This document shows, piece after piece, positions 1 to 18,067 of a stretch of 20,000 bases of DNA. The notes beneath the pieces were generated by a model that saw nothing but the letters and a program-made list of their open reading frames with translations, was not told the DNA's origin and searched no databases. Both the position numbers and the translations under genes were made by a program. The stretch lies in IMG/VR virus record IMGVR_UViG_3300025138_000017; one strand, 5' to 3'. This DNA is from an uncultured virus (IMG/VR IMGVR_UViG_3300025138_000017) (taxonomy: Duplodnaviria; Heunggongvirae; Uroviricota; Caudoviricetes). Within the stretch, counting starts at the first letter, position 1; the number at the start of each line of letters is the position of its first letter.

Positions 1-354
1 TCCAATATATGCTCCCAAGGTATCGTCGAGCCATTGAGATTTCTCAATATATTTTTTAATCCAATCTTTTTCTTCGGAAGAAAATCTTTCTCCTTCCATT
101 TGTAGAGTTCTTTTTAATGTGGGTTCATTTAGATCATATCCATAACTGTCTGGTGGAAACCCATCATGTGTTTCTGCTGGTGTGCTCTTAACGCACTCTA
201 ATGAAGCAGCATACTCAGCTCTATCTTCTTTTTTAAATTTACCTTTTGTTTTCCAATTTGGTAAATTTACATCTGGTGGATTTGCTGATACCCAATCGCT
301 ATATTCATTTAAGACGGTCAAAAGATCCGTAGGTAGTGTCAAAAGTTGTCTCAT
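1..354 (-). CDS. Hypothetical phage protein, 3'-truncated by the window edge (not in the ORF track)
   Basis: ATG at 354-352 directly after an in-frame TAA-TCA, with a GGGAGG SD ~13 nt upstream. Frame is open for 118 codons to base 1 (MRQLLTLPTDLLTVLNEYSDWVSANPP...THDGFPPDSYGYDL...WLDDTLGAYIG). Overlaps the glycosyltransferase 3' end by 50 nt. Confidence 0.8.
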   Translation of the reverse strand, partial: MRQLLTLPTDLLTVLNEYSDWVSANPPDVNLPNWKTKGKFKKEDRAEYAASLECVKSTPAETHDGFPPDSYGYDLNEPTLKRTLQMEGERFSSEEKDWIKKYIEKSQWLDDTLGAYIG

Positions 355-1147
355 TGATTATAAAAGCCTCCCGCTTATGTACTTGCTTGGAATCTATAGT
401 GTAGTGCAAAAATGCTTTTTTAGATCCAGGCCTCAATTCAGTTTCACGATACCCTGTAACAAAATTATATTTTGCATCATTAGGCATCCTTTTTATATTT
501 ATCTGCATATCTGGATTTTCATATAATGCTCTCCAGAATGCAAATGTATCCCAATACGTTAGCCCTTTAGGAAACGGTTTGGTGTTCTTTTCAACTGTAT
601 GTCTTTTATACCAATACAGCCATTGCTCCCATAGTTTTTGTGTTCGCTCATTCTTACGCCAGACAAACATTCCACAATGCCATCTAAACTTATGAGCCTT
701 TCCTTGTTTGTATAACTCAACATGATCAGGATTATAGTGTTCTAACTCTTCTCCAGGTATACCGGGTCCTACTTGATCGTCGTGTGTAAAGTAAACGACT
801 TTAGCATTGTAAGGTCTATTCTCTGACATGACAACATCTGCATCACCTAATAAATCAAAAACTTCTTCTATTTCATTGCTTAGTACAAATCCATCTACAT
901 CCAAATAACATGTAACGTCAAATGGTGTCAATGGTAATGCCCATAACTTTGTTCTACAATGTACTGGTACTGGTGTTATAAGATGATCAAACAAATGTCT
1001 ATCTTCATCTCTTACCCACTCTTCATGAGTAAACACTGCTACCTTTGCATCAGGTACCTCATCTTTCAATGATTGAACGCACATAACCATTGCTTCATAG
1101 AATGGTTTTGATAATGTAGCTACTAAAAGATAACCTCTAGTTTCCAT
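305..1147 (-). CDS. Putative GT-A fold glycosyltransferase (GT8-like / nucleotide-diphospho-sugar transferase)
   Basis: N-terminal GYLLVAT strand, SLK...VAVFT, TKLWALPLTPFDVTCYLDVD (DxD motif) followed by IEEVFDLL, and HCGMF (NxG-like) later; start overlaps the upstream gene by 11 nt. Confidence 0.75.
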   Translation of the reverse strand: METRGYLLVATLSKPFYEAMVMCVQSLKDEVPDAKVAVFTHEEWVRDEDRHLFDHLITPVPVHCRTKLWALPLTPFDVTCYLDVDGFVLSNEIEEVFDLLGDADVVMSENRPYNAKVVYFTHDDQVGPGIPGEELEHYNPDHVELYKQGKAHKFRWHCGMFVWRKNERTQKLWEQWLYWYKRHTVEKNTKPFPKGLTYWDTFAFWRALYENPDMQINIKRMPNDAKYNFVTGYRETELRPGSKKAFLHYTIDSKQVHKREAFIINETTFDTTYGSFDRLK

Positions 1148-1670
1148 CCTTTTCAGCTTCCTTAATTAAAATAGCAGATCCAAATGCTCTTGCCTCTTCG
1201 GCCGTTAATGCTGATCTAAGTTTTCTTTTTAAATTTTTATGTTCTGTATTTTTAACAGTAGGTATATCAAGAAACATAGATTTAACATTCCATAAGTCTG
1301 CTCGAGACTTTTCTCTTTCTTCTGCCTTCTTCATTTCTTCTGATGATTTTGACAAAGCTGACTGTATTGCTGCTTGTCTTTTAGTATTATGTCTAACTTC
1401 ATCTTCACTAAATTGTCTTTTTATATCTCTATACAATGGATGGTTTTGATCTTTAGGAATTCCTTTTTCTTGAGTAGCCATTCCATCTGGTCTTAATAAC
1501 ACACATGATAATTCTGTCCGAGCATTATTTGTATAATGTGGATTTACAATTACCGGTAATGTAGGATCCAGATGTAACTCTGGAATTGGAAGAGTTCTTA
1601 GTTCTTCTTTCTTGGGGGTTTCGACTGTGACTCCTTCTGGAATCTTAGCCATTTTAGGTTCTTCTGCCAT
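1137..1670 (-). CDS. Hypothetical protein, 177 aa (possible fibre assembly chaperone)
   Basis: ATG with GAGGA SD (1677-1681) and an upstream TATAAATA; charged helical C-half; NPHYTNNARTELSCVL loosely recalls tail-fibre-assembly N-terminal motifs (weak). Confidence 0.8.
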   Translation of the reverse strand: MAEEPKMAKIPEGVTVETPKKEELRTLPIPELHLDPTLPVIVNPHYTNNARTELSCVLLRPDGMATQEKGIPKDQNHPLYRDIKRQFSEDEVRHNTKRQAAIQSALSKSSEEMKKAEEREKSRADLWNVKSMFLDIPTVKNTEHKNLKRKLRSALTAEEARAFGSAILIKEAEKDGN

Positions 1671-1724: not shown

Positions 1725-4700
1725 TTAAGCTGTTCTAACCCATAGTTTTAATGTTGTTATTGTTTCTGTACCAGCCTGTACTGTTTGTCCAGCATATGCA
1801 TGAGTATAGGTTCCTTCGTATTGGGCTACAAAGTTAGTTGTAAATGAACCCTCATATGCTTTTTCATATTGTTTAGTGTATTGGCCAATGTATGCTTTTT
1901 CGTATTGTGTTGTAAATGATCCCTCAAATAATTGCGTATAGGTCTTAACATAGTTACCTGTAAACTGCTGATCAAATTGACCAGAGTATGATTTTTCATA
2001 CAAGCCAACATATGCTTTTTCAAATTGTTGAGTAAACTGACCTGTAAATGTTCCTTCGTAATCTTTAGAATATATTTTTAACCAAGTACCAACATATGAT
2101 CTTTGGAATTCGCCTTCATATTGTTTAGTATATTGACCAAGATATTCGCCAGAGTATTGGCCAAGGAATGATCCAACCCAAGCCTTTTCAAACTGTCCTA
2201 CATATATGCCTTCATATTGTTTGTTAAATGATCCTTCAAACTGTTTACTAAATTGTTTTGCATATTGTTTAGTATATTGTCCTGTGTACTGTCCTAAGTA
2301 TGACTTGACGTATGAACCAGTAAACTCACCTTCATATGTTTTAGTATATTGTCCAACATATGATGCACCAAATTGGCCTTCAAAAGTTCCTGTATACTGT
2401 CCAATATATGTACCTTGATATATTCCCTGGTATGCATGTGCACCTTCATATATTCCTGTCCAGTATCCTATGTATACTCCTTCATATGTTTTTTCATACT
2501 GTCTTGTAAACTGGCCAGTGTATTGGCCATCATATTGTCCACTAAATGTTCTGTCACCTGTCCATTGCTTGGCATATGCTTTCTGATAGTTTGCACTTAC
2601 ATATGTTGTGTTGAAGACTCCTTCCCACTGATGAGCATATTGCCCCTCGTATGATCTGTCTCCTTCAAATTGACCTGCATATTGTTTTACATATTCAACT
2701 ACAAATACCTTTTGATAATTAGCTGAGTATTGTCCTGTATATGTTCTTGATCCAGAGTATGCTTTGGTATAGGTTTTATTAAATACTCCAGTGTATTGAG
2801 TGCCATACTGACCTGTATATGTTCTGTCGCCTTCATATTGTTTAGCAAATTGGCCTTCCCAGTTTCTAGCAAACGAACCTTCATATGTTTGACCATATTC
2901 TTTTTGATAGTTCTTAGTATAAGCTCTAGCGTATTGGCCTACAAACTGCGTATTGAATACTCCAACATATATTCCTTCGTATAATGTTAAGTATGTTTTG
3001 CCATATTGTCCAACAAATGATTTTAAGTAATCAGTTGTAAATGATCCTTGATATGATTTAGTATAGTTAGTATCAAATGAACCTTCATATAATGCTAAGT
3101 ATTGTTTATTGAATTGGCCTTCGTATGCTTTAACGAACAATCCAGTATATGTTTTAACATATGATGTTTCAAATACACCTTCATATGCTTTTTCATAATT
3201 AGTTGCAAACTGCCCTTCATAAGTTTTTTCGTAATTAGTTCCAAACTGGCCTGTGTATGTTGTGTCATAGTTTGTAGCAAATTGACCTTCATACAGTTTA
3301 GCATATTGTACTCCAAACGCACCCTCATATTGAGTAGTATATTGGCCTTCATATGCTTTAGCATATGTAGTATTGAAGTCTCCTTCGTATTGAGCTACAT
3401 AATCTTTAGCATAGTTTGTACTAAATATTCCTTCATACAATTTAGCATATTGTGTAGAAAACTGTCCTTCATATGCTTTAGCATATTGTTGTGTATAGTT
3501 AGTTGTGTATGTTCCTTCAAACACACCACCGTATATGTTTGTATATTGACCAATGTATGCTTTTGCATATTGCTCACTAAATTGTCCTAAGAATGCTTTA
3601 GAGTATGATCCAGTATATGCTTTTGCATATTGCTCAATATAATCTTTAGAGTAGTTGTCTGTAAATGCACCAGTAAACTGACTAGCATATTGTCCAAGAT
3701 ATGCTTGAGCATAGTTGACTGATTCCCCACCTGTAAACTCTCTTGCATAAGAACCTGTATATGTTTTCTGGTATTGGTTAACATAGTTCTTAGCATAGTT
3801 ATCTGTAAACTGTCCTTCGTATACATCTGTATATTGGCCTACATAATTCTTAGTATAATTGGTAGTATATGTTCCTTCAAACACTCCACCGTATATGTTA
3901 GTGTATTGACCAACATAGTTCTTAGCATATTGTGTTTGATATATTCCTACAAATGCTTTGGTGTAAGTTCCTGTATAATCTTTTTGGTAATTAGTAGAAT
4001 ATATTTTTGTATAGTTATCTGTATACTGGCCAGTGTACTGTCTGTCATAGTTTCCAGCATAAGTTTTAACATATTCAGTTACATAATCTTTAGCATAGTT
4101 ATCAGCAAATTGTCCTGTAAACTGTCTATCATAATTACCCTCATATTGCTTAGCATATTGAGCAATATAATCTTTAGCATAGTTGTCTGTAAATTGACCT
4201 TCATATGCTTTATCAAAATTCTTTATATATGATTTAGCATACTGTGTGGTATAGGTTCCTTCGAAGACACCACCATATATGTTCGTATATTGACCAACAT
4301 AATTCTTAGCATAATTTTCTGTAAACGCACCTTCGTATTGAGAAACAAATACACCCTCATATGTTTTAGTGTATTGTGTTGTGTATGCTCTTTCATATGA
4401 AGCTGCAAACAATCCTACATACTGACCTTCAAATTGTCCTTCATAGTTAGTAGCATATTGTCTTTCCCAGTTTTTAGTATAGTTGGTCGTAAACAATCCT
4501 GTGTATTGGTCTGTAAATTGACCTACGAATGCTTTTGTATAGTTTCCAGTATATGCTCTATCATAGTTGCCCGTATAGTCTCTAGTATAATTGGTTGTAT
4601 ATTGAGCATCAAATGATCCAGTAAATTGACTTGCATATTGTCCAACATAATTTTTGGTATAGTTAGTTGCATATGATCCAGCAAACACGCCACCGTATAT

Positions 4701-7700
4701 GTTTGTATATTGACCAACATAGTTCTTAGTATAGTTTGTTACATAATCTCTAGAATAATTGGTTGTGTATACTCCAACATATGCTTTTGTCCACTGACCT
4801 GAATATGCTTTTTGGAAGTTCTTATTATAGTTACCAGTAAACTGTCCGGCAAACCCTCTTGAGTATTGACCGATCCATTGTTGAGCATAGTTGGTTACAA
4901 ACGTACCCGCAAACACGCCTTCATATATATTTGTATATTGACCTACATATGCTTTCTGATAAGCAGTAGAGTAAGTTCCGTCAAACGAACCACCATATAT
5001 GTTTGTGTATTGGCCTACGTATGCTCTTTGATATGCTGTGTTATATGTTCCTGAAAATGCACCTTCATAGATATTCGTATATTGACCAACATAGTTTTTA
5101 GTATAATTGGTTGCATACTGGCCAGTAAAGGTTTTAGTATATTGACCAGTGTATTGTTTTAAATAGTTAGTAGCATATTGACCAGTATATGTTTTAGTAT
5201 ATTGTCCTGTATATGTCTTAGTATAATTTACATCATAGTTTTTAGTATAATTGGTTGCATACTGACCAGCAAACGCTTTTGTATATTGACCTGTGTACTG
5301 TTTTAAATAGTTTCTAGTATATGTTCCACTAAACTGTGTATTGTAAGTTCCAGAATATGCTCTATCATAGTTTCCAGCATAAGTCTTAGTGTAATTACCA
5401 GTATATGATTTTGTGTATTGACCAGTATATTGTCTTAAAAAGTTGGTAGCATACTGACCAGAATATCCTTTAGTATAATTACCAGTATAAGAACCTGTAT
5501 ACTGTCCAGTGTATGCTCCAGTATATTGACCTGCATATGCTCTTTGATAGCTAGTGTCATATTGTTTTAAATAGTTTTTATTATATGAACCACTAAACTG
5601 CTTAGTATATTGACCAGTATATTGTTTTAAATAATTGGTTCCATACTGGCCAGCAAATTGTCTATTATATGTACCACTAAACTGTTTGTTATAGTTACCT
5701 GCATATGCTCTAGTGTAGTTAGTTGCATATGTTCCACTATATTGTGTAGCGTATGTTCCTGTGTACTGTCCAGAATAAGCTGTTGAGAAATATCCTGTAT
5801 ATTGTTTAGTATAGTTGCCTGTAAATTGTCCTGTGTACTGTCCAGTAAATCCTCTAGTATATTGTCCTGTATACTGTCTTAAATAGTTAGTACTATAGGA
5901 CCCTGTATATGTTGTACTAAAGTATCCTGTATACTGACCTGAATATGTTGCAGTAGTTTGAGAGAAACAACCTTCGTATTCTTCAAAGTCATCATCACCA
6001 GTATCAATAAAGATTCTACAATATGTACCACCACTACTGAATTGTTGAGATACTGACCCTACAAATGTTCTAGTATAGTTAGTTGTTTTTACATAGTTTA
6101 AAAATTGGCTCCCAAATTTACTAGAGACAACCCTGTTGTAAGTTACATTACCAGCAAACTGTCTAGTATAATTTACATTTGCAGTACCAGTAAATTGTTG
6201 AACTGCCCCAACATAGTTTCCTGTATATTGAGTAGATCTGGTTACTCTTACATAGTTTCCTGAATAAGCTCTTGTATAGTTGGTTCCATATGATCCACTA
6301 TATTGTGAATTATATGTTCCGGAAAATTGACTACTATATGTTCCAGCAAATTGTTTTGAGTAGTTTGTAGTTCTAGTTACCCTAGAATAACTTCCTGTCC
6401 ATTGTCTTGAGAAGTTTCCTGTATACTGTCCTGTGTATTGTCTTGTATAGTTAGTGCTGTAATATCCAGTATATGTCTTAGTATAGTTTCCTGAATATGC
6501 TTTTGTATAGTTACCTGTATACTGTCTTAAAAAGTTAGTACCATATGTTCCACTATACTGTGCTGAGTATTGACCTGTGTACGATCTAGTAAAGTTAGTT
6601 CCATATTGTCTTGTATAGTTGGTAGCATAGTATCCTGTATACTGTCCAGAATAGGTTCCACTATACTGTCCTGAATATGCACCAGAGTATGCTCTGTCAT
6701 AATTTCCTGTATAATGTTTAGTATAGTTAGTTCCATATGTTCCAGCAAATTGACTGGTGTACGTGCCACTATATGCTCTATCATAGTTTCCAGTATATCT
6801 TTTAGTATAGTTACCTGTATATGATTTAGTATATTGACCTGTGTATGCTTTTTGGAAGTTAGTACCATACGTTCCACTATATTGAGAACTATAGTTACCT
6901 GTGTACTGTCTTTGATACTGAGCCGTATAAGTTTTTAAATAGTTTTTATTATAGTCACCAGAGTATGCTCTGTTATAGTTTCCCGTATAATGTTTAGTAT
7001 AGTTAGTTCCATATGTTCCAGAATATTGTTTATTGTAGTTACCTGTATACTGTCTAGTATAGTTAGTAGCAAATGACCCTTCCCATATTCTATCATACTG
7101 TCCTATATAAGAACCAACATATGCTTTAGTATAGTTTCTAGCAAATGATCCTTCCCATATTCTATCGTATTGTCCTACATAAGATCCAACATATGCTTTA
7201 GTATAGTTTCTAGTAAATGATCCTTCCCATATTCTATCGTATTGTCCTATGTACTGACCAACATATGCTTTCTGATATTGAGCTGCGTATGGTCCTAAGA
7301 ATGTTCCTGTGTATACTCCAGTCCATTGCGTCTGGAATAATTTAGTATAGTTGGTATTATATACGCCAGTGTAGGTGGTGTTATAGGAACCTTCATATGC
7401 TTTCTGATATTGTTTAACATAATTCTTAGCATAGTTTGTAGCAAATGAACCTTCCCAGATTCTATCATATTGTCCTACATATTGGCCAACATAGTTTTTA
7501 GTGTAATTCTTTGCAAACGTTCCTTCGAATGCTCCTGTGTATTGTCCTAGCCAAACTTTAGCATATTGCTTTGCATATGCTTTTTGATATACGCCTGTAT
7601 ATGTTTTGGTGTATACGCCTGTAAATATTGTAGAGTATACTCCTTCCCATATCTTGGTGTACTGGCCTTCATACTGTGCAGCCCATTGTACAAGATATGC

Positions 7701-10700
7701 TTTTTGATATTGTTTTGTATATACTCCAGTCCATTGTTTTGCATATGAACCTTCCCACTGTTGTGCGTATGCTGCAACATATTGTTTAGCATATTGTTTT
7801 GAATACTGACCGACATAAGCCTTTTCATATTGTCCAAGGTAAACTTTATCATATTGGGTAACAAATGTTCCTTCCCATATTCTATCATATTGGCCTACGT
7901 ATTGGCCAACATATGCTTTCTCGTATTGTTTTGAATAAGCCTTTTCATATGTTTTTACATATTGTCCGGTCCACTGTTGTTGATATTGAGCAACATAGTT
8001 TTTAGCATAGTTGGTTGTATACTGTCCTGTGAATCTTCCTTCGTATTGTCCAGCCCATTGTTGTAGGTATTGGGCAACATAGTTTTTAGCATATGCAGTT
8101 TGGAATTCACCTGCATATCTTTTTTCGTATATTCCTGTCCACTGTTGCTGGTATTGTGCTGCATAGTCTTTTTGATACTGACGAAGATAAACACCAACAT
8201 AGTCTGTCTCATAAGATCCTTCATAATCTTTGGTGTATTGAGTAACAAACGTACCTTCCCATATTCTATCGTATTGTCCTATGTACTGACCAACATATGC
8301 TTTTTCGTATTGTTTAGCAAATGTTCCTTCCCATTGCTTAGTGTACTGACCTGCCCATTGTTGTTCGTATTGGGTTACATAATCTTTAGCATAGTTAGTA
8401 TTATAGTCGCCATCAAATGCTCTTTCGTATGCACCAGCATATGCCTTTTGATATTGTGTTACAAACTGGCCTTCAAATGCTCCTGTGTATTGTCCTACCC
8501 ATTGTTGCTGATATTGCTTAACATAATTCTTAGCATAGTTGGTTTCATAGTCGCCAAGATATGCTTTAGAGTATGAGCCTTCGTATTGTTTATCGTATTG
8601 AGTAACAAACGTACCTTCCCATATTCTATCGTATTGTCCTACCCATTGACCAACATAAGCCTTTTCATATTGCTTACTATATTGTTTTACATATTGACCA
8701 ATGTAATCTTTTGTATATTGAGCTACGTATTGACCAACATATTCTTTTGTATATTGTGCAACATAGTTCTTAGCATATTGTCCTGTGTATGCTTTTATAT
8801 AATTTGTAGTATACTGACCACCATATTGACCAGCATAGAGACCTACATATGCTTGGCCCCAGTTTTGTTCATATAATCCTGTGTATTGATTAATCCACGT
8901 CTTACCGTATACGCCTGTATACTGTTGAAGATAATTACGTGCGTAGATTCCTGCATACTGTTTTAAGTATTGTGTTGCGTATTGGCCAACGTATTGTTTA
9001 GCATAACCTTTGTTCCAATTACTTAAATAATTCTTTTCATAGGATCCAACATATGCTTTCTCCCATATTCTATCATATTGGCCAACATATGTCTTTGTGT
9101 ATTGAGCTTCGTATATTCCAACATAATCTTTTGTGTATGTTTTTATATACTGGCCTATGAAATCCTTTTCGTAGTTCTTAATATAAGAACCTACATAAGC
9201 TCCTTCAAATGTTTTTTGATATGCTCCAACATAATCTTTATTATATGATGTAACATAATCTTTTATATAACCAGCAGTATAGTTACCAACATAATTAGCT
9301 TCTAAGAAATATCCTGAGAATAATTCTGAAGCACTATCATATTGTCCAGTGAATGTTCTATCACCTTCGTATTGTTTTGTATACTGACCTGTATATGCTT
9401 TTAAGTATCCTTGAGTATAGAAACCATTATATTCTCTATCACCCTCGTATGCTTTTGTAAATTGCTTTTGATAGTTTGTACCAAGATACCCTTTACTAAA
9501 GTTTTGAGTAAATTGGCCAGTGTATGTTCTTGTTCCAGTATATTGTTTTGTGTATTGACCTGTGTATGATGCTGTCCAATTACCAATATATATTTTTTGG
9601 TATTGATCTGCATACTGTCCTGTATATGTTCTACTACCAGCGTATGTGCCTTCGTATGAGCCCGTATACTGCTTTGCATATTGCTCAACATACTGTCCCG
9701 TATAGTTAGCTGCGAAAATGCCTTCAAACTGTTTTACGCCGGTGTAATACCCTGTGTATTGTCCATCGAACGAGCCTTCAAATTGTTTAGAGTATGCTCC
9801 AGTCCATTGTTGGCCAAATGATCCTTCATATTGTTTACTATACTGTCCTGTGTAAATTCCTGTATAAGTTGTATTAAAAGATCCTTCAAATACACCTTCG
9901 TATATTTTACTGAATGTTCCTTCAAATTGGCCTTCGTATTGCCCCAGGTATGCACCCATGTACTGTCCAGCAAACGCTCCGGAATATTGGGAAATAAAGA
10001 ATCCATCAAACGAGCCTTCATATTGCTTAGTAAATGAGCCTTCGTATTGTTTGCTGTACAGACCAGTATAAGACTTAAGATATATTTTATCATATTGGCC
10101 AACATACTGTTTAACATATACGCCTGTATATGTTCCTTCAAAAGAACCTTCGTATTGGGTTAAGAATGTTCCTTCGTATTGTTTTGTGTAGTTTCCAGAA
10201 AATGAACCTTCATACAATCCGGTATATGTTTTATTAAAGTTTCCTTCATATTGTCCAATATATTCTTTTGTATATTGGGAAACAAAGACACCCTCATATT
10301 GTTTTTCGTAATGGTGTGTGTATATACCGACATATTGCTTTGCATATTGAGATGCATATTGGCCAACATAGTTTGTATTGTATCCTATATCAGCTAAAGT
10401 GTTTCTATTATCAACAAATGATCCACCTACTTGTACCCAGGTCTCACCTGAAGCTGCAGGGTTAGTCGCTGATAATTTATATTGTCCTATACCAGTAGCA
10501 TATATTTGATTTCTCAATCTCATTGCTAATAGTTTTATCTCTGCATCGGACATCTCTTTAATTGCAGAGTTTTGAATTTTTGCTGTTCTAACAACAGAAG
10601 GTGCAGAAACACCTTGGGTCTTACGCCATAAGGTATATGTAGTCGTACCACCTAAAGTGGTATCGGTCATTGTGGATCCAGTACTTGTATAAAGGCTATT

Positions 10701-11129
10701 GTTGGGATTTGTTTCAGACAAGTGGTAGGATCCCAAACCGGACGATGTAAGATTCGCAAGTGCTCTTGATATAAGGACAGAGTTTAGAGTATTACTATGC
10801 TCAGATGCATAGCCGCTGTCATTAAGAAACAATGGGTACACCATAGATGTTTCTGCGATCGAATTGAGATTTTGTTTAAGTGTATATGTTTGGGACGTTA
10901 TATTATTAGCAGCTGGATGAGTACCTACGCTTTCTGTTCTATAGGTATCAGTGAAAGAACCCATTGAGGTTCCCTGTCCATTTATGTTTAAAGTACCAAG
11001 GCCAGAAGTGCTTGTTGAGAATTCAGATAGAATTTGATGGACGGCGTAATCCATCTCGGTAGTCTGCATTTCCTGCACACCGAGAAAAGTACCCCCTCCG
11101 GTCGTTTTTATTCTAAGTGGATTTCCCAA
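1725..11129 (-). CDS. Giant (3134 aa) aromatic-tetrapeptide repeat protein, probable virion fibre/filament with mirror-registered arms
   Basis: Uninterrupted 9.4-kb ORF with a TTG start 4 nt after the upstream stop; ~250-aa non-repetitive N-domain, then (Y/F/W)xxx repeats over aa 250-3112, then a short C-terminal strand; located in a tail-fibre cluster. Confidence 0.85.
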   Translation of the reverse strand: MGNPLRIKTTGGGTFLGVQEMQTTEMDYAVHQILSEFSTSTSGLGTLNINGQGTSMGSFTDTYRTESVGTHPAANNITSQTYTLKQNLNSIAETSMVYPLFLNDSGYASEHSNTLNSVLISRALANLTSSGLGSYHLSETNPNNSLYTSTGSTMTDTTLGGTTTYTLWRKTQGVSAPSVVRTAKIQNSAIKEMSDAEIKLLAMRLRNQIYATGIGQYKLSATNPAASGETWVQVGGSFVDNRNTLADIGYNTNYVGQYASQYAKQYVGIYTHHYEKQYEGVFVSQYTKEYIGQYEGNFNKTYTGLYEGSFSGNYTKQYEGTFLTQYEGSFEGTYTGVYVKQYVGQYDKIYLKSYTGLYSKQYEGSFTKQYEGSFDGFFISQYSGAFAGQYMGAYLGQYEGQFEGTFSKIYEGVFEGSFNTTYTGIYTGQYSKQYEGSFGQQWTGAYSKQFEGSFDGQYTGYYTGVKQFEGIFAANYTGQYVEQYAKQYTGSYEGTYAGSRTYTGQYADQYQKIYIGNWTASYTGQYTKQYTGTRTYTGQFTQNFSKGYLGTNYQKQFTKAYEGDREYNGFYTQGYLKAYTGQYTKQYEGDRTFTGQYDSASELFSGYFLEANYVGNYTAGYIKDYVTSYNKDYVGAYQKTFEGAYVGSYIKNYEKDFIGQYIKTYTKDYVGIYEAQYTKTYVGQYDRIWEKAYVGSYEKNYLSNWNKGYAKQYVGQYATQYLKQYAGIYARNYLQQYTGVYGKTWINQYTGLYEQNWGQAYVGLYAGQYGGQYTTNYIKAYTGQYAKNYVAQYTKEYVGQYVAQYTKDYIGQYVKQYSKQYEKAYVGQWVGQYDRIWEGTFVTQYDKQYEGSYSKAYLGDYETNYAKNYVKQYQQQWVGQYTGAFEGQFVTQYQKAYAGAYERAFDGDYNTNYAKDYVTQYEQQWAGQYTKQWEGTFAKQYEKAYVGQYIGQYDRIWEGTFVTQYTKDYEGSYETDYVGVYLRQYQKDYAAQYQQQWTGIYEKRYAGEFQTAYAKNYVAQYLQQWAGQYEGRFTGQYTTNYAKNYVAQYQQQWTGQYVKTYEKAYSKQYEKAYVGQYVGQYDRIWEGTFVTQYDKVYLGQYEKAYVGQYSKQYAKQYVAAYAQQWEGSYAKQWTGVYTKQYQKAYLVQWAAQYEGQYTKIWEGVYSTIFTGVYTKTYTGVYQKAYAKQYAKVWLGQYTGAFEGTFAKNYTKNYVGQYVGQYDRIWEGSFATNYAKNYVKQYQKAYEGSYNTTYTGVYNTNYTKLFQTQWTGVYTGTFLGPYAAQYQKAYVGQYIGQYDRIWEGSFTRNYTKAYVGSYVGQYDRIWEGSFARNYTKAYVGSYIGQYDRIWEGSFATNYTRQYTGNYNKQYSGTYGTNYTKHYTGNYNRAYSGDYNKNYLKTYTAQYQRQYTGNYSSQYSGTYGTNFQKAYTGQYTKSYTGNYTKRYTGNYDRAYSGTYTSQFAGTYGTNYTKHYTGNYDRAYSGAYSGQYSGTYSGQYTGYYATNYTRQYGTNFTRSYTGQYSAQYSGTYGTNFLRQYTGNYTKAYSGNYTKTYTGYYSTNYTRQYTGQYTGNFSRQWTGSYSRVTRTTNYSKQFAGTYSSQFSGTYNSQYSGSYGTNYTRAYSGNYVRVTRSTQYTGNYVGAVQQFTGTANVNYTRQFAGNVTYNRVVSSKFGSQFLNYVKTTNYTRTFVGSVSQQFSSGGTYCRIFIDTGDDDFEEYEGCFSQTTATYSGQYTGYFSTTYTGSYSTNYLRQYTGQYTRGFTGQYTGQFTGNYTKQYTGYFSTAYSGQYTGTYATQYSGTYATNYTRAYAGNYNKQFSGTYNRQFAGQYGTNYLKQYTGQYTKQFSGSYNKNYLKQYDTSYQRAYAGQYTGAYTGQYTGSYTGNYTKGYSGQYATNFLRQYTGQYTKSYTGNYTKTYAGNYDRAYSGTYNTQFSGTYTRNYLKQYTGQYTKAFAGQYATNYTKNYDVNYTKTYTGQYTKTYTGQYATNYLKQYTGQYTKTFTGQYATNYTKNYVGQYTNIYEGAFSGTYNTAYQRAYVGQYTNIYGGSFDGTYSTAYQKAYVGQYTNIYEGVFAGTFVTNYAQQWIGQYSRGFAGQFTGNYNKNFQKAYSGQWTKAYVGVYTTNYSRDYVTNYTKNYVGQYTNIYGGVFAGSYATNYTKNYVGQYASQFTGSFDAQYTTNYTRDYTGNYDRAYTGNYTKAFVGQFTDQYTGLFTTNYTKNWERQYATNYEGQFEGQYVGLFAASYERAYTTQYTKTYEGVFVSQYEGAFTENYAKNYVGQYTNIYGGVFEGTYTTQYAKSYIKNFDKAYEGQFTDNYAKDYIAQYAKQYEGNYDRQFTGQFADNYAKDYVTEYVKTYAGNYDRQYTGQYTDNYTKIYSTNYQKDYTGTYTKAFVGIYQTQYAKNYVGQYTNIYGGVFEGTYTTNYTKNYVGQYTDVYEGQFTDNYAKNYVNQYQKTYTGSYAREFTGGESVNYAQAYLGQYASQFTGAFTDNYSKDYIEQYAKAYTGSYSKAFLGQFSEQYAKAYIGQYTNIYGGVFEGTYTTNYTQQYAKAYEGQFSTQYAKLYEGIFSTNYAKDYVAQYEGDFNTTYAKAYEGQYTTQYEGAFGVQYAKLYEGQFATNYDTTYTGQFGTNYEKTYEGQFATNYEKAYEGVFETSYVKTYTGLFVKAYEGQFNKQYLALYEGSFDTNYTKSYQGSFTTDYLKSFVGQYGKTYLTLYEGIYVGVFNTQFVGQYARAYTKNYQKEYGQTYEGSFARNWEGQFAKQYEGDRTYTGQYGTQYTGVFNKTYTKAYSGSRTYTGQYSANYQKVFVVEYVKQYAGQFEGDRSYEGQYAHQWEGVFNTTYVSANYQKAYAKQWTGDRTFSGQYDGQYTGQFTRQYEKTYEGVYIGYWTGIYEGAHAYQGIYQGTYIGQYTGTFEGQFGASYVGQYTKTYEGEFTGSYVKSYLGQYTGQYTKQYAKQFSKQFEGSFNKQYEGIYVGQFEKAWVGSFLGQYSGEYLGQYTKQYEGEFQRSYVGTWLKIYSKDYEGTFTGQFTQQFEKAYVGLYEKSYSGQFDQQFTGNYVKTYTQLFEGSFTTQYEKAYIGQYTKQYEKAYEGSFTTNFVAQYEGTYTHAYAGQTVQAGTETITTLKLWVRTA
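1794..10382 (-). repeat. Degenerate 12-nt / 4-aa coding repeat array (e.g. YTGQ, YEGQ, YTKN, YVGQ)
   Basis: Aromatic residue at nearly every fourth position for ~2,860 aa; higher-order 24-aa (72-nt) and 120-aa (360-nt) duplications, e.g. an identical 47-nt stretch at 8235-8281 and 8595-8641. Confidence 0.95.
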
Positions 11130-11133
11130 TTTA

Positions 11134-14100
11134 CTAAGCCTTTAATTTAAACGCGCTATCCCCAAATACGCTACCAGTATTTATAAAACTTACTCGACTA
11201 GCATCATAACCTATTATAGCTGATCCTGGCTCGCCTCCGTTTCCTGACTGTGCGTATTGAGAATAGTGGGTTCCTGGGTTAGCAACATTCTGTGATGCAT
11301 CTGAGTCATCATTATACCCGCCTGCACCTGTTCCTAGTTGACCTAGTAATCCACCATTTCCTCCATGTATGCCTAATGCTGTGGATGCATTAGTGCCATT
11401 TCTATCTGAACTGCTTTCTGAAATGAAAGCTCCTGAATTCCATCCAGCACCAGTTCCACCGATGCCTCCAGAGCTACTTACTCCGTTTACGGGATAGCCA
11501 CCGCCACCTCCGCCACCACCGCCACCGGCGATGATACCATAATTTTCTATATAAACTTCTATACCGTTACCCATCTTAATAGCGTCACCACCATTAGCAC
11601 CATTCTGTCCAGTTGTAGCACCTAGACCAGCTACACCAGATTTACCAATAATATTTCCATCTGGTTTAACTAATATTTTAACTTTATGGTTAATATTTTG
11701 AATAGCTCCAAATCCTGATAAGTCAAGTGCTGGTGTAGTTTGATGATCTGAATATACATATACATCATCTGCTATTGTAATGTTAACATGTTGAGGTCTT
11801 GTTGCTTTTGATTTACCTAAGCTACTTAAATGAGCTGATAGGTTAAATTGTGATGTATTACTAGAAAGAGTTATATCTGTTCTTTCATAATTGACGCCTG
11901 TTATCTTCCATTGGCCGTCTTCTTTCTTTCTTACAATTGATACATCTCTCCATGCATCATTTTCTTTTATTTTTATATCTTTAGCTTGTTTCCATATGCT
12001 AGCATCTTTCACTCTAATTAAGCCACCATCATCTGTTAGCTCACCACTCTTAGTGTTAGCTACTGCAGTAGTTGTCACATATGAAGTATGGAATGTTTGA
12101 GGTCCTGCAAAGTTTGTTGCAAATCTCAAGGTGTCTCCTATACTGGCATAAGCCCCTTGATATACTCCACCATATGCTTTTACATAAGCACCTACGTATG
12201 TTTTATTAAATGCACCTTCATATAATTTAGAATACACTTTACCAAACTGAGCACCAAATTGTCCTTCGTATTCTTTAGTATATTGTTTGACGTATACTTT
12301 ATTATACACTCCTACAAATGCACCTTCATACTGACCTGTGAATAGAGCTCCATATTGTTTAATATATTGGCCTATAAATGTTCCTGTGTATTGACCAAGG
12401 TACACGCCTTCGTATGCTTTGATATAATTCTTTTCAAAGTTGTGTGTAACTAGTCCAGTAAAGTTTCCATTTGCTGATGCGTTGTATAAAGCTGGTCCTT
12501 GGAATTGTCTTGAATATACACCTGTCCAATGTTGAGTATATGTTTTAACATAGTCTTTATTATATTGACCAATGTACTGTCCTGTGTATGCTTTTTCATA
12601 TTGCTTTACAAAAGAACCTTCAAACAATCTTGAGTATTGTCCTACCCATATTTTATTGTAAACCTTTTCATATGCTTTAGAATATTGCTTTGTATATATT
12701 CCTGTATAGTAACCAATATAATATCCTATTGTTGTCCATGTCTTTTCATACTGTTTTAGATATCCTTTTTGATAAGACCTTGACCATCCGCTGGCGCCTC
12801 CAGCTCCATAATAAAGGGTTTTACTATGCATATAGCTTGAGGTAAATTGACCCCCGTAATGAGCTATAAAATTCACACCAGAATTGACTCCTAGATAACC
12901 AGTTCTTGCATCTGACCATGCAGATAGGTAGAACATGAGGTCAACCAAGGTTGAACCTTTGATGTATGCTTGCGGGCCCGAATCCGAATATGATTTTGCA
13001 TACGTTGCCAGGTTGCCAGTTGCTCCAAGATAAGAATTTAACTCCAAATCTTCAAAGTTTCTTTGATAATAAACACCACCTGTTCCTTGATATCCCGTTG
13101 CATCTGCACCAGCCTCTGGGTCCGCATCGGCAGTATTGCCACCAATATATGCTCTTGTCTGTGCACCAGTATATTGAGTTATGAATTCGCCACCCAGCAG
13201 GCCTGCTTTGGAATAAACGGTTCCACCAGACGCATAATACAGTGTACCAAATTCTCTATTGTTACCTTGTTCCCAAGACACACCTTGTGCGTTTAGATAA
13301 CTTCCTGTGCTCCCGGATGCATAGTTAGTACCACCACTATCTGAATAGTTAAGTACTTGAGATGGTGTGTCAGATGCGTTTACAAATAAACGAGAATAGC
13401 CTATATCGCCACTCCATGATTTAGAGTATTGAGCTGTAAAACCTAGGGAAACTGTACCCTCAAACCCTTCACCATCTTCTTCAGAATAAGTATTAACTAC
13501 TCTTACGTATGCGGTACCTTGATAATAGATCCCTTCGTACTGACTAGTTGCACCCCAAAATTTGCTGAAGTGGCGGAGAAATTGCGACTCATAATTTCCT
13601 ATATAAGTTTTGGCCCAAGTTTTGTAATACGATTTGTGATATTGCTTTAAGTACTCTTTTCCATAATGAGCAATATAATTTAAGTTTTCTGATCTATATG
13701 AATTAAATACTCCTTCATAATCCTTACTGTAATGTTTTGTCCACTGCGTAGTATAAGCTGCACCAAAACTTCCTTCAAAGGTTCCTTCGTATTGTCCTAG
13801 ATATGCTTTCTCGTATTGAGTGGTGAATACGCCCTCGTACACACCTTCGTATGTTTTAGTGTATGTTTTACTATAAGAAAGTCCGGATGCAAATGTTCCT
13901 TCAAATGCACCCTCGTACATTACTAGATAAGGACCACCTAAAAATTGTTTAGCAAATTGACGAGAGTAGCTAGCTATATAACTTTTATTATAATAACCAG
14001 TAAACGCTCCTTCAAACTGTCTGTTGAAAGCTCCCTCATAAGTCTTGCTAAAGCTATTACCAAACTGTCCTTCAAATTGACTAGTAAATGAACCTTCGTA

Positions 14101-14349
14101 AGCCTTGCTGTATTCTTTGCTGTATTGTTTTGAGTATACGCCTAACCACACACCATCGTATTGTTTGCCCCATTGTTTTTCGTATTGGCCTAGATATGTT
14201 TTTGTGTAGTCGCCTAGATAAGTTTTTAGATATGACGCAAGAAAATGCTCTATGCCTCTAATTTGATTAGCATAGTTAGTCCCAACATAGGATGCTGCGA
14301 ACTGTCTATCGTCACCTGCGAAAGACTTTGCGTAATTAATATCTGCCAC
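11134..14349 (-). CDS. 1071-aa tetrapeptide-repeat protein with C-terminal gp38-like glycine-rich adhesin domain
   Basis: GTG start with GGGGAG SD (14355-14360); Yxxx repeats at aa ~40-290 and ~525-734; Trp-spaced linker (IWKQ..AWRD..GQWK); C-terminal GGDAIKMG...IENYGIIAGGGGGGGGG and further Gly-rich motifs typical of T2/T6/S16 gp38 polyglycine adhesins. Confidence 0.75.
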   Translation of the reverse strand: MADINYAKSFAGDDRQFAASYVGTNYANQIRGIEHFLASYLKTYLGDYTKTYLGQYEKQWGKQYDGVWLGVYSKQYSKEYSKAYEGSFTSQFEGQFGNSFSKTYEGAFNRQFEGAFTGYYNKSYIASYSRQFAKQFLGGPYLVMYEGAFEGTFASGLSYSKTYTKTYEGVYEGVFTTQYEKAYLGQYEGTFEGSFGAAYTTQWTKHYSKDYEGVFNSYRSENLNYIAHYGKEYLKQYHKSYYKTWAKTYIGNYESQFLRHFSKFWGATSQYEGIYYQGTAYVRVVNTYSEEDGEGFEGTVSLGFTAQYSKSWSGDIGYSRLFVNASDTPSQVLNYSDSGGTNYASGSTGSYLNAQGVSWEQGNNREFGTLYYASGGTVYSKAGLLGGEFITQYTGAQTRAYIGGNTADADPEAGADATGYQGTGGVYYQRNFEDLELNSYLGATGNLATYAKSYSDSGPQAYIKGSTLVDLMFYLSAWSDARTGYLGVNSGVNFIAHYGGQFTSSYMHSKTLYYGAGGASGWSRSYQKGYLKQYEKTWTTIGYYIGYYTGIYTKQYSKAYEKVYNKIWVGQYSRLFEGSFVKQYEKAYTGQYIGQYNKDYVKTYTQHWTGVYSRQFQGPALYNASANGNFTGLVTHNFEKNYIKAYEGVYLGQYTGTFIGQYIKQYGALFTGQYEGAFVGVYNKVYVKQYTKEYEGQFGAQFGKVYSKLYEGAFNKTYVGAYVKAYGGVYQGAYASIGDTLRFATNFAGPQTFHTSYVTTTAVANTKSGELTDDGGLIRVKDASIWKQAKDIKIKENDAWRDVSIVRKKEDGQWKITGVNYERTDITLSSNTSQFNLSAHLSSLGKSKATRPQHVNITIADDVYVYSDHQTTPALDLSGFGAIQNINHKVKILVKPDGNIIGKSGVAGLGATTGQNGANGGDAIKMGNGIEVYIENYGIIAGGGGGGGGGGYPVNGVSSSGGIGGTGAGWNSGAFISESSSDRNGTNASTALGIHGGNGGLLGQLGTGAGGYNDDSDASQNVANPGTHYSQYAQSGNGGEPGSAIIGYDASRVSFINTGSVFGDSAFKLKA
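11178..11185 (-). promoter_or_regulatory. Possible T4-type late promoter (TATAAATA) for the giant gene
   Basis: Exact consensus inside the 3' end of the upstream gene, ~50 nt before the giant ORF start; chance matches are plausible in AT-rich DNA. Confidence 0.45.
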
Positions 14350-14360
14350 TCAGGCTCCCC

Positions 14361-14699
14361 TTATGTTAGAGTCTGATACCAGATGTCGCCGTTAGTGCCT
14401 ATAGAGTTACTACTTGGTGCTGAACTAGATATGTATATCTTTTGATTAGGTGTATGTGCAAATGATCCACTTGCTACACCTGCTGCATTAGTATTTGCAA
14501 ATGTTACACCAGTGACGTTTACAGACGTATTAGATGCTGCTGTTATTCTACCTTTAGCATTTACTGTGAACGTAACTAATTGAGTATTATTCGAAGTGTG
14601 CGTTGCTGCACTTACACCAGTATCTGATAAAGCTGTATCAACAACCTTAGCTGATGAATTAACTACCTCGGTACTGCCGTGTAAAATTTGATCAGACAT
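14361..14699 (-). CDS. Small tail-fibre-motif protein (112 aa), possible adaptor
   Basis: Contains LSDTGVSAA...FTVNAKGRITAASN and ISSSAPS...GTNGDIWYQ, both common phage tail-fibre motifs; start overlaps the upstream stop by 8 nt. Confidence 0.7.
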   Translation of the reverse strand: MSDQILHGSTEVVNSSAKVVDTALSDTGVSAATHTSNNTQLVTFTVNAKGRITAASNTSVNVTGVTFANTNAAGVASGSFAHTPNQKIYISSSAPSSNSIGTNGDIWYQTLT

Positions 14700-17600
14700 C
14701 TTCTTCCTCGTTTTCCTCTACATTAGGTTCTAGTTCTTTTACTCTTTCGGTCAACTCTTTGACGGCTTCTATCAGTAATGGTATCAGCGCATTATAGTTA
14801 ACTGTTTTAAACCCACGACTATTTATATCTACAGCGTGAGGCAACACGTTCTCCAATTCTTGAGCTATAACCCCATAGTCTGGTGTTCCAACTCTCATGT
14901 CTCCGATGTTGTTATTCCATACAAATTCATAACCACCAAGAGCATTTACTTTATCTAATGCAGTGTCTATCTTTAATATGTTATCTTTTAATTGTTGGTC
15001 TGATGAATAACTAGCTACTAGATCATCAGTAGCGTATATGTTATTTGCCAATACAGCTGTAGTATTAGCTAACGTATCTCCAACTACTATGCTAGTATCA
15101 AAGTATCCATTTTTGAATGATTTAGCTGCTGAGCCAATATCCCATTGATTGGTATTTGATGCAAACACATGACCATTAACTGAAGCATTTGCAAATACTA
15201 ATTGAACAGTATTTGCTCCATTACCAATTTGTACTATATTATTACCTGCGCCAGTTGTAGATGCTCCTGTTAACTTAAGAGAATTTGTAACTGTTACATT
15301 TGCAGATCCTAATTCAGTAGCTGTTAATGTTGTGTCTGATGGGAATTGAGCTGATACTCCAACCTGTAAGTGATCAACAACTAAGTTGTTAGATGTTAAT
15401 GCTGTTGCGTTAGCACTTATACCAGTATTAGAGAATATAACATTACTTGTATTTGCTAATGTAATATCATCACCAACTGATAGATCACCAACAATAGCAC
15501 CGGACGCTGCATTTACTTCTCCAGTAATGTCTACGTCTCCACCTGCTGTTATAACTCCTGATGTGTTTATTGTTGCACCAATTAGATCCCATCTAGCACT
15601 TGCAGCACCTAAGGTTAATCCATTAGCATTCGGTAAGACATTAGAAGCAACATCTGCTGTAAATGTTACTTTGTCTGTTGCAGCACTACCTATGATTGTA
15701 TTACCTGAAACTGTTAAGTCATTTCTTATTACTGCATTGTAAACATTTGCTTCTTTGTTATCAGCTATATCTAAATCATTTGATAATGTAGTAACTCCAA
15801 CAATGTTTGCTGATCCTGATAATGTTGTAGCACCTGTTACACCAAGTGTGTTTGCAAGAGATGCTGCTTTTAATACTGTTAAGGTTCCATCTGTGTGAAC
15901 AGCTGTAGAAGTTAATGATGTGTTTACTGTACTATTACCTACTGATAATTTAGATGCAGATAAGTTTACGTTTGCGCCTACATTATAGGCTACTGTTGTA
16001 TTAGATGTTCCTGTAACTGCTATACCATCACCAAAGGTTGCGTGGCCTGTATGTGTTGATAGTGTTGTGACTTTTAATACATTTGTATTTGTTGTTGCAG
16101 CTGCTTCTATATTAGCACTTGCTGTTATAACGCCTGTAGATGTAAGTGTACCAGATGTGTTTGCATTTGTAAATGACGCATTGTGCCATCTGTGATTTGT
16201 GTCACCAAGTACAACATTATTACCGTGTAGAGGTATAAGACCTTGTGTACTATTTCCAACTAATCCTTTTACTATAAGTCTATCAAAACCGTGTGTTGCG
16301 TTTGCTGCACCTGCATTACCTAAAGTTATTGTTCTGGTATTACCTGCTAATGATGTTACTAATGTATTGACTGTTGAGTTAGCAACAGTGAATTGAGCAT
16401 TAACAGATACATTGCCACCAACTGTAGCATTTCTAGTTATTGTTAAATCATTGTTGGATGTTATATCTTCACCGACTAAATCATCAGCTACTACATCCCA
16501 TCTTGCTGCTACGCTACCTAAACTTTTACTTCCATTAGCACTCGGTATTATGTTTGTATCGACTACACCAACAACTGATATTGTATCGCTTGCTGCTGAG
16601 CCTAAATCTGTATTGCCTTGAACTACAAGGTCTGTGTCTATGTTTACTGATGCATCAAAGTCTGCATCTTTAGTAACTTTTATTTTATCTGAGAATACTG
16701 CGTTAGCTGTAACTGTTAATAGATCACTATTAGCATTACCAATAGTAGCATTAGCTGTAGTTGTTAGGATCCCATCAATGTTTGTTGCTGAATTAATATC
16801 TAAATTCGTACCATGAATATTCATATTGGTAGAATCTATTAATGTGTTTGTTCCTGATACATTAAAGTCTGTTGACGTGATATCGGTTAATGCATTGTCA
16901 ACATCTAAGTTTGCATTTGCATCTATCTTAGTATTGAATATGTTAGTTGTAGCATTAGAAGTAAATGTTACTGCTGTTGCATCCATCTCTACTGCTGTGC
17001 TATTAGCTTTTAATACACCAGCATTGATATCTATTACTGCTGCATCTATGTTTACATTTGAACTTACATTAAACTCACCACCGTTAATTGCTGTGTTAGT
17101 AGATGAGAAATTGGTTAATGTATTATTAAAGTCTGCATCAGCATTAATGTCTAGTGGTGTATTGAATACATTGAGTCCAGCATTTGATGTAAATATATTT
17201 GCAGTAGGATCTATATTAATCTTATGTGTTGTTGAATTACTCTGTGTTACATTAAGTGCACCAGCCAGTACATCAAAGCTAGCTGCATCAAAGTTTACAT
17301 TAGATGTAATATTTAATTCACCATTTTCAACAACTGTATTACTAGATGTTATTTGTGTTAATGTATTGTCAATATCTAAGGTTGCATTTAGATCTATCTT
17401 AGTATTGAATATATTTGTTACTGCATTGGATTCAAATACTTTTGCAGTAGAATTAATTGTTAGATTGTTTGAAGTAGAGTTTGTTGTTAGTTGTACGCCA
17501 GGTGCAAAGTGTGCATTTGATTGTGCATGTATTATTGCATTAGCTGTACTGTTAGCTATGAATACTACATTTGAACTAATAATTAAATTAGCTGCTGCAG

Positions 17601-17847: not shown

Positions 17848-18067
17848 TTGACTTCACCTCTGCTAACTGTATTATCATTTGCTTTATCTCTACCATATCC
17901 TGTTTTAAACTTTGCACTTCATTGCTAAGTTGATTTACTGTTCCAGCTTTTGCTCTTTGACTTTTGTATTGAACATATGCAGCCTTATCAGTATTTATGA
18001 GAGCCATTGATGACTTGTCTCTAAATATTCCTTGTGCTTCTGTCTCTATTAATGTTATCTTAGCCAT
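17840..18067 (-). CDS. Small hypothetical protein (75 aa) with C-terminal coiled coil
   Basis: TAATG overlap with the upstream gene and 8-nt overlap downstream; RDKSSMALINTD...Y motif resembles small proteins that follow VrlC-like genes in T4-like marine phages (from recall). Confidence 0.8.
   Translation of the reverse strand: MAKITLIETEAQGIFRDKSSMALINTDKAAYVQYKSQRAKAGTVNQLSNEVQSLKQDMVEIKQMIIQLAEVKSNG

Follow-up and report, generated by a model that had tools for sequence, protein, structure and literature searches.

Phage fibres are usually trimers. In gp37 of phage T4 each chain runs to the head and returns, and the core contains His-x-His motifs that bind iron. SMC, Rad50 and MukB have intramolecular antiparallel coiled coils, with a hinge or hook mid-sequence, N- and C-terminal parts that join in one head, and arms matched in length. 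The proteins are ATPases that act on DNA, and their arms are α-helical and ~50 nm in length. The stalk of streptococcal antigen I/II is a fold-back fibril of about 50 nm on the bacterial surface. In this stalk, an α-helix is wound with a polyproline-II helix, the N-side repeat pairs with a different C-side repeat and the binding domain is at the far tip. PMC9659904 describes the needle at the T4 gp37 tip as six-stranded and antiparallel, and the C-terminal ~215 residues of gp37 as conserved flanks round a divergent specificity segment in mid-stretch. The needle has a length of ~150 Å (PMC3004832). It makes up just the end of a parallel trimer. Here, we analyse a giant gene of an uncultured virus of the Caudoviricetes (IMG/VR record IMGVR_UViG_3300025138_000017) in a stretch of 20,000 nucleotides, hereafter the window. 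The gene encodes a protein of 3,134 residues, most of which form a four-residue repeat. The order of the repeats supports an arrangement of the protein as two arms in residue-level antiparallel register. We propose that the protein is probably an out-and-back fibre, with a base made from both chain ends and a variable tip mid-sequence.

The open reading frame (ORF) begins with a TTG codon that lines up with the ATG start of its homologues. Its parts are as follows.

1725..11129, minus strand: whole gene of the 3,134-aa fibre protein, TTG start, stop codon at 1725-1727
10383..11129, minus strand: N-terminal globular domain, aa 1-249, proposed base or attachment end, most conserved region
9783..10382, minus strand: outer N arm, aa 250-449, tetrad repeats, mirror sum 3362, length kept in the relatives L002 and L008
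9294..9782, minus strand: bulge zone of the N arm, aa 450-612, G(D/S/T)RxY modules at 498, 532, 563 and 589, which shift the aromatic register
6378..9293, minus strand: inner N arm, aa 613-1584, strict tetrads, mirror sum 3366, eight YDRIW and six QQW motifs
5946..6377, minus strand: middle or proposed tip, aa 1585-1728, where the repeat breaks down, with two RVTR modules, two Cys and an acidic run
2838..5945, minus strand: inner C arm, aa 1729-2764, strict tetrads, seven YTNIY and five (T/A)DNY motifs
2433..2837, minus strand: bulge zone of the C arm, aa 2765-2899, G(D/S)RxY modules at 2767, 2793, 2823 and 2858
1794..2432, minus strand: outer C arm, aa 2900-3112
1725..1793, minus strand: C-terminal tail, aa 3113-3134, ending in ..TLKLWVRTA, the conserved closing strand of the family

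An aromatic residue occupies each fourth position from Y250 to Y3112, and 662 of the 708 successive gaps between aromatic residues are exactly four residues long. A preliminary description of this DNA, made by hand counting, had placed the array at nt 1794-10382. This span is exactly Y250-Y3112, and its residue numbers are those of the ORF. The 2,863 residues of the array are rich in Tyr (18%), Thr (12.5%), Gly (12%) and Gln (10%). They are nearly devoid of His, Cys, Met and Pro. With His at 0.2% of a Tyr/Gly tetrad repeat, the metal-binding His core of gp37 has no counterpart here.

Landmark motifs in the two halves of the array are placed as mirror images. The motif DRIW has its Asp at 686, 834, 954, 1082, 1222, 1298, 1322 and 1346, and TNIY has its Thr at 2018, 2042, 2066, 2142, 2282, 2410 and 2530. 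Each TNIY has one DRIW partner and the two positions always sum to 3364 (7/7 pairs). The remaining motif, DRIW 686, is opposite a tetrad that is unique, YLALY 2677-2681. The Trp of QQW at 877, 925, 997, 1025 and 1053 is opposite the Asp of (T/A)DNY at 2491, 2443, 2371, 2343 and 2315, and all five sums are 3368. The preliminary description had reported both sets of pairs as well as the unpartnered DRIW 686, and it had every position right. It did not list three further QQW motifs, with Trp at 442, 1125 and 2085; W1125 is opposite FAASY instead of DNY. It also predicted that mutual information between positions i and S-i, scanned over the mirror sum S, would peak near 3366. The scan does peak sharply at S=3366, where z reaches 11.7-12.2 relative to 59-109 in-phase offsets. 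The same sum gives the peak when aa 1350-1550 (z 5.2) or aa 640-830 (z 4.5) is taken as a sub-window. A parallel scan, comparing i with i+D, gave no peak above 3.1 standard deviations. By position within the tetrad, the middle-middle pair carries 1.12 bits (z 19.8) and the flanking pairs have z values of 7.3 and 9.1.

The strongest signal is a Gly-Gly rule. At the point halfway between two aromatics, the arms either both have Gly or both lack it. At S=3366, for aa 255-1600, the counts GG/G-/-G/-- (Gly in both arms, in one or the other only, and in neither) are 105/28/21/151 (odds ratio 27, p 9e-34), and eight off-register sums give odds ratios of only 0.4-1.5. Over aa 600-1580 the counts are 90/6/4/140 and the odds ratio is 525. 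In this test, 3366 is the best of 33 sums in each of four independent inner segments. The outer segment aa 255-450 selects 3362 as the best of 33 sums (22/7/3/17, p 3e-5), which is the sum that the preliminary description had given for the array ends. The inner and outer registers differ by four residues because of the bulge zone. Each arm has four register-shifting G(D/S/T)RxY modules that are mirrored with sums of 3355-3356. Five six-residue aromatic gaps per arm are likewise mirrored in the bulge zones, the N arm being one tetrad longer there. Among non-Gly middle pairs, K:T (28), K:K (27) and T:K (21) are frequent. Thus, the earlier statement that partners are different sequences holds for the complementary K:T, DRIW:TNIY and QQQW:TDNY pairs, but the strongest rule sets like with like (Gly:Gly). 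These statistics fix which tetrads face each other; S=3366, with Tyr facing Tyr, and a two-residue stagger, with Tyr facing Gly, give the same signal.

The mirror register is conserved in relatives. Full-length homologues of 2,838, 2,645, 2,436, 2,121, 2,093, 1,721 and 1,022 aa were retrieved from IMG/VR contigs by means of the N-terminal domain. Across the window protein and the six relatives in the range 1,721-2,838 aa, S minus protein length is nearly constant in an unbiased scan over all S, at 232, 231, 230, 235, 232, 232 and 228. A mirror sum of its own is thus found in 7/9 proteins tested. The exceptions are the 1,022-aa homologue (L015), where a constant-S signal was looked for and none was found (top z 2.0-2.5), and a truncated-looking protein of 654 aa (L010). 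DRIW-like and TNIY-like motifs vary together in number (7+7, 4+4, 2+2), always at mirror places, and the four bulge modules per arm are also equal between arms and mirrored in relatives.

L015 (10001-13069) mixes 4-residue units with 7-residue Y-x-R-x-x-PGP-x-Y units. PGP-rich stretches of one of its arms are opposite GRVY(Y/S) stretches of the other, a correspondence that was not significant in our tests. This layout may be a different pairing scheme. The ORF of L010 (10001-11965) has the family N domain and tetrads, and ends in ..RRQTV without the closing motif. It was probably shortened by a frameshift or an assembly error.

Alignment with the closest relative (L002) shows how the register is kept when length changes. 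Outside the middle, the length of each indel listed is divisible by four. The net excess of the window protein, summed from the indel rows of the alignment, is 140 residues in the N arm and 140 residues in the C arm. Individual pieces are matched across the mirror: 980-1011 with 2353-2384, 1157-1172 with 2190-2205 and 1191-1194 with 2172-2175, that is 32 residues with 32, 16 with 16 and 4 with 4. As many as 914 of 1,191 residue pairs map exactly onto the mirror sum of L002 itself. In the more distant L003 only 11% do so, which we attribute to alignment ambiguity in the repeats. The outer arms and bulge zones (1794-2837 and 9294-10382) have the same length in L002 and L008, and nearly all tetrad gains and losses occur in the inner arms, closer to the tip.

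Could the mirrored order arise without any physical pairing, as a by-product of repeat duplication or by chance? The arms are built from related cassettes and a forward comparison of the two halves is also above shuffles (z_fwd 4.6 for the window protein). However, no DNA-level event yields a mirrored order of modules that are all forward-oriented. Moreover, the peak is sharp to a single residue, the mirror is kept in homologues that differ by up to ~1,400 residues, and it is maintained through matched indels. We consider such an origin very improbable.

The repeat breaks down at the symmetry centre, in aa ~1585-1728. The preliminary description placed the turn near aa 1683, inside this non-repeat middle. 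Among homologues the middle varies in both sequence and length. It is the least conserved region in 4/4 homologue comparisons, with 17-37% of window residues identical, versus 63-80% for the N domain. A near-identical copy of the protein, in record G001, has 3,128 of 3,134 residues in common with it (99.8%). Three of the four real substitutions that distinguish the two are located in the middle (D1713S, F1715N and A1650V in the copy relative to the window; binomial p 4e-4). C1704 and C1721, the only two Cys noted in the array, flank an acidic run, DTGDDDFEEYEG. A turn with a host-contact tip would be expected to look like this middle, which is harder to square with a continuous antiparallel duplex of two chains.

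This bears on an arrangement in which the partners belong to different molecules. In an antiparallel oligomer the chains would lie head to tail, residue i of one pairing with S-i of another. Each end of the rod would carry one N domain with the C-terminal strand of the other chain, and the non-repeat middles would meet mid-rod. All the sequence statistics and the matched indels are equally expected in this case, and AlphaFold2 run on a monomer would draw an inter-chain contact as an intra-chain one. A length-variable, least conserved, non-repeat middle is nevertheless more in keeping with a turn or tip than with a junction halfway along a rod. In addition, a rod with identical ends would have no obvious way to join the virion at one end and the host at the other. 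We therefore regard the oligomer as distinctly unlikely. The breakdown of the repeat and the least conserved middle, both at the symmetry centre, argue for a hairpin rather than a continuous duplex.

The base of the proposed hairpin is modelled with high confidence in one family member. The N domain is the most conserved region, being 63-80% identical to four homologues. The closing motif ..TLKLWVRTA at the C-terminus also ends 7 complete IMG/VR homologues. We predicted the structure of a 708-aa full-length relative, P0042, using AlphaFold2 with a 58-row alignment. This protein has mirrored module lengths, with a mirror peak at length+238. In the model, the N domain has a predicted local distance difference test score (pLDDT) of ~95 and the C-terminal strand 678-706 a pLDDT of 82-97, a range that also holds for the last 29 residues. 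Long strands are predicted at 248-268 and 678-706, and 268+678 = 946 is the mirror sum of P0042 itself. Two structure alignments treat model residues 47..708 as one domain. The model thus places the C-terminal strand with the N-terminal domain with confidence, so that the loop would be closed at the base.

Searches did not connect the base or the arms with known families. The N domain has no match in Pfam, PHROG or PDB sequences. The giant protein has no Pfam match, and its sole PHROG match, phrog_2468, is weak and unrelated (E 6e-5, 0 significant stretches). A PDB sequence search with an arm piece and the N domain returned nothing at E<0.25. A search for N-domain homologues among proteins of 1,723-5,485 aa returned nothing, and a search of the ESM Atlas gave no usable match. 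Foldseek of the P0042 model against the PDB found nothing at E<=0.001. VIA-align gave only middling Z scores on repeats and did not match the fold of the N domain. Pfam, PHROG and PDB sequence searches found no similarity to the gp37 tip or its profile families.

The following architecture is proposed. In the base, the C-terminal strand (..TLKLWVRTA) and the N-terminal domain (aa 1-249), both of them conserved, would join in one unit. From the base, an outgoing arm of ~1,330 residues of Y-x-(G/K/T)-x tetrads would lead to the tip, a small, fast-evolving non-repeat piece in mid-sequence (aa ~1585-1728). The return arm would then run antiparallel, residue for residue, alongside the outgoing arm. 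The register would be set by a pairing pattern of aromatic with aromatic, Gly with Gly, and Lys/Arg opposite Thr/Lys/Glu/Asn. Landmark modules would be opposite each other, YDRIW with YTNIY, YQQQW with (F/Y)(T/A)DNY, and the G(D/S)RxY bulges with one another. The arms would be forced to stay matched, and the fibre would therefore change in length only via paired gains or losses of tetrads. The fold-back reading has good support insofar as it means that the arms are in antiparallel register, residue by residue, and that the chain begins and ends at the same base.

Such a fibre would resemble the T4 gp37 needle in its out-and-back course, with which the mirror register and the base closure of P0042 fit, the arm models having low confidence (pLDDT 32.4 and 40-60). 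Conserved flanks round a divergent segment, as described for gp37 in PMC9659904, are likewise proposed here, also in a T4-type fibre. One difference is scale: the T4 needle is only the end of a parallel trimer, and here the entire ~2,860-residue array would fold back. The preliminary description knew of no phage appendage built in this way. The gp37 needle, as presented in PMC9659904, is a small-scale precedent for it, and none was found at the present scale. The most likely reading is a fold-back fibre design for which we found no earlier description at such a scale. No published account of the family or of the fold-back design was found either, in a literature search that was weak for subscription journals. 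Compared with the SMC/Rad50/MukB arms, the arm models contain no helix and the sequence is rich in Tyr, Thr, Gly and Gln; compared with the antigen I/II stalk, the repeat is a phage tetrad repeat. Two other rod designs were rejected. The four-residue period does not suit a helix of the collagen or polyglycine-II type, in which the period must be 3. A heptad coiled coil of the SMC/Rad50 type was discarded on the composition, the period of 4 with Tyr and Gly, and the helix-free arm models.

Several points weigh against a fold-back fibre, and the first come from the arm models. AlphaFold2 on aa 1290-2076 of the window protein gave an all-β model with a mean pLDDT of 32.4, too low for contacts. 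The arms of this fragment align separately to parallel β-helices (Z 5.2-7.9), and not to a ribbon. The arms of P0042 (pLDDT 40-60) align to leucine-rich repeat (LRR) and solenoid folds with Z up to 8.5. Both sets of arm scores lie in the range that the VIA-align guidance itself describes as common for repeats; it names Z <8. DSSP assigns no helix to the arms in either model. A complex prediction for aa 1014-1156 with aa 2210-2352 gave an interface score (ipSAE) of 0.00 in both runs; made from 3-row alignments without controls, it is evidence neither way. A weak super-period of 28 residues (7 tetrads) is a further point of this kind, as it is expected of a coil. Lag 28 is the top autocorrelation lag in both arms (2838-9293, minus strand). 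The super-period is stronger in L003 (0.36 versus a mean of 0.21), and the strand pattern of 26+2 residues in the AlphaFold2 model follows it. It may be a coil or may reflect duplication history.

These observations could be explained by two antiparallel β-solenoid rods packed side by side, in which coils at the same height must match. Parallel β-helices and solenoids are common in phage tailspikes. A turn would take ~28 residues here and 20-22 in P0042, which indeed contains 20-22-residue modules, and the fibre would be some tens of nm long. AlphaFold2 drew both arms in this way, with β-helix and LRR/solenoid scores as above, and lag 28 leads the autocorrelation in both window arms and in L003. 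The models are of low confidence, however, and a solenoid, being defined by contacts between i and i+coil, needs a strong correlation at that distance. The Gly-Gly odds ratio at lag 28 is 1.7-1.9, and that at the best of 50 lags per arm is 2.2-2.5, compared with 525 across the mirror. The mirror correlation is thus ~200-fold above the coil correlation within an arm, in terms of odds ratio. Moreover, the indels have a unit of 4 instead of 28 and the other arm matches them to the residue, which lateral packing would not demand. A constant coil length with conserved positions stacked at i and i+coil is not seen, and we consider the solenoid pair unlikely. The preliminary description had stated that arms folding alone as β-solenoids would speak against its hairpin. 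This is what AlphaFold2 drew for each arm, weakly (pLDDT 32 for the window fragment, 40-60 for the relative), and the sequence statistics oppose a regular solenoid.

At the other extreme, a single chain could form one continuous two-stranded antiparallel β ribbon of ~1,330 rungs and ~0.4-0.45 µm. It would have no conventional hydrophobic core, with cross-strand Tyr pairs over Gly-Gly rungs and a peptide pairing code (G:G, K:T, DRIW:TNIY, QQQW:TDNY, bulge:bulge). It would act as a "fishing line" of tunable length, giving the phage a larger capture radius in dilute water. A two-stranded ribbon offers no classical hydrophobic core on either of its faces, a further point against the fold-back fibre. 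We hold this extended form to be doubtful; a lone ribbon of 0.45 µm is a possibility. The length of 0.45-0.5 µm given in the preliminary description is an upper bound for fully extended strands. The ribbon may itself coil, and the fibre could measure anywhere from some tens of nm to ~0.45 µm.

The remaining difficulties for the fold-back fibre concern oligomeric state, covariation and the wider family. An antiparallel dimer gives the same sequence statistics as an intramolecular hairpin would. Covariation across homologues, which the preliminary description had proposed as a check, takes the form of matched indels. Compensatory point substitutions are not observed: for the Gly/non-Gly class, comparison of the window protein with L002 gave 0 double and 21 single changes in 199 pairs. 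In a general mirror test, the N half was compared with the C half read backwards, and block-shuffled sequences served as controls, with only 8-20 shuffles per null; z is at least 5 in 13/36 complete proteins and below 2.5 in 15/36. A clear Gly/aromatic mirror peak is seen in only 2-3 of 27 distant complete proteins. Finally, the family member in phage C48C1 (OQ984149), which has 3,347 aa, gave no single-S mirror peak. Some family members thus show the mirror clearly; in the others it is undetected, or coded in another way.

The wider family was delineated with a profile built from 13 N domains, the window protein being its first row, which was searched against 1.84 billion representatives. It matched 501 proteins at E<=1e-3 and 403 at E<=1e-10, most of them truncated. 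At least 27 complete proteins of 615-1,578 aa with a C-terminal ..TLW/Y-x-R-x-A motif are present among the 150 matches listed. Ten matches were looked up, and all ten are metagenomic and either nameless or called "hypothetical protein". No Pfam family was found in any of the 11 members scanned. Family members span ~0.6 to 3.1 thousand residues. C48C1, filed under Kyanoviridae, is the only GenBank phage that carries the family, in the same gene neighbourhood. Its member (L001 13983-24026) has a direct internal duplication (forward-half z 9.8), and several non-repeat domains are inserted in it.

If the fold-back holds over ~1,330 residues per arm, it would be by far the longest intramolecular antiparallel pairing known in a β-type protein. 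Partners, register shifts and turn would be inferable without a structure, and each protein would supply hundreds of cross-strand pairs for the study of β-sheet pairing rules. Fibre length would be evolvable via paired gains and losses of four-residue units.

The genes around the giant gene also point to a tail-fibre locus. All are encoded on the same strand.

18067..19956, minus strand: 629-aa tail-associated protein, VrlC-like, phrog_358
14692..17847, minus strand: 1,051-aa long-tail-fibre-like protein with a C-terminal Peptidase_S74 intramolecular chaperone domain
14361..14699, minus strand: 112-aa ORF after the S74 fibre gene, weak PHROG matches only
11134..14349, minus strand: 1,071-aa fibre protein with a C-terminal Gp38 adhesin domain (PF05268, E 2.6e-12, aa 845-1064), phrog_2056 tail fibre
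1137..1670, minus strand: downstream ORF of 177 aa, without family
305..1147, minus strand: downstream ORF of 280 aa, without family

The gene of the 1,071-aa fibre protein is located upstream and ends 5 nt before the start of the giant gene. The Gp38 adhesin domain is fused here to the C-terminus of the fibre protein, whereas the gp38 of T2/S16-type phages is a protein in its own right that binds to the tip of the fibre. From this gene context, the giant protein is likely a putative virion adsorption fibre whose mid-sequence tip would meet the host. A likely host-recognition part in mid-gene would be relevant to host-range prediction for abundant uncultured aquatic T4-like phages.

The gene order is common to the window and phage C48C1. 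A homologue of the 280-aa ORF is also found downstream of the giant gene in C48C1 (30% identity, E 2e-9), and the pairing of this gene with the giant gene is therefore conserved. No match was obtained when the neighbourhood was compared with phages by megablast. A Gp23 capsid gene is present on the contig of the closest relative and has 70-76% identity with its counterparts in Stenotrophomonas phage DLP6, Methylophilales phage Melnitz and T4-like cyanophages. Taken with the fibre gene block, this sequence evidence points to an uncultured aquatic T4-like myovirus as the source of the window.

Finally, ORFs of 90-170 aa are nested within the giant gene (2373-10141), on the plus strand and in the other minus frames, for example at 3774-4232 (+) and 8070-8576 (+). 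They look like by-products of the repeat composition.

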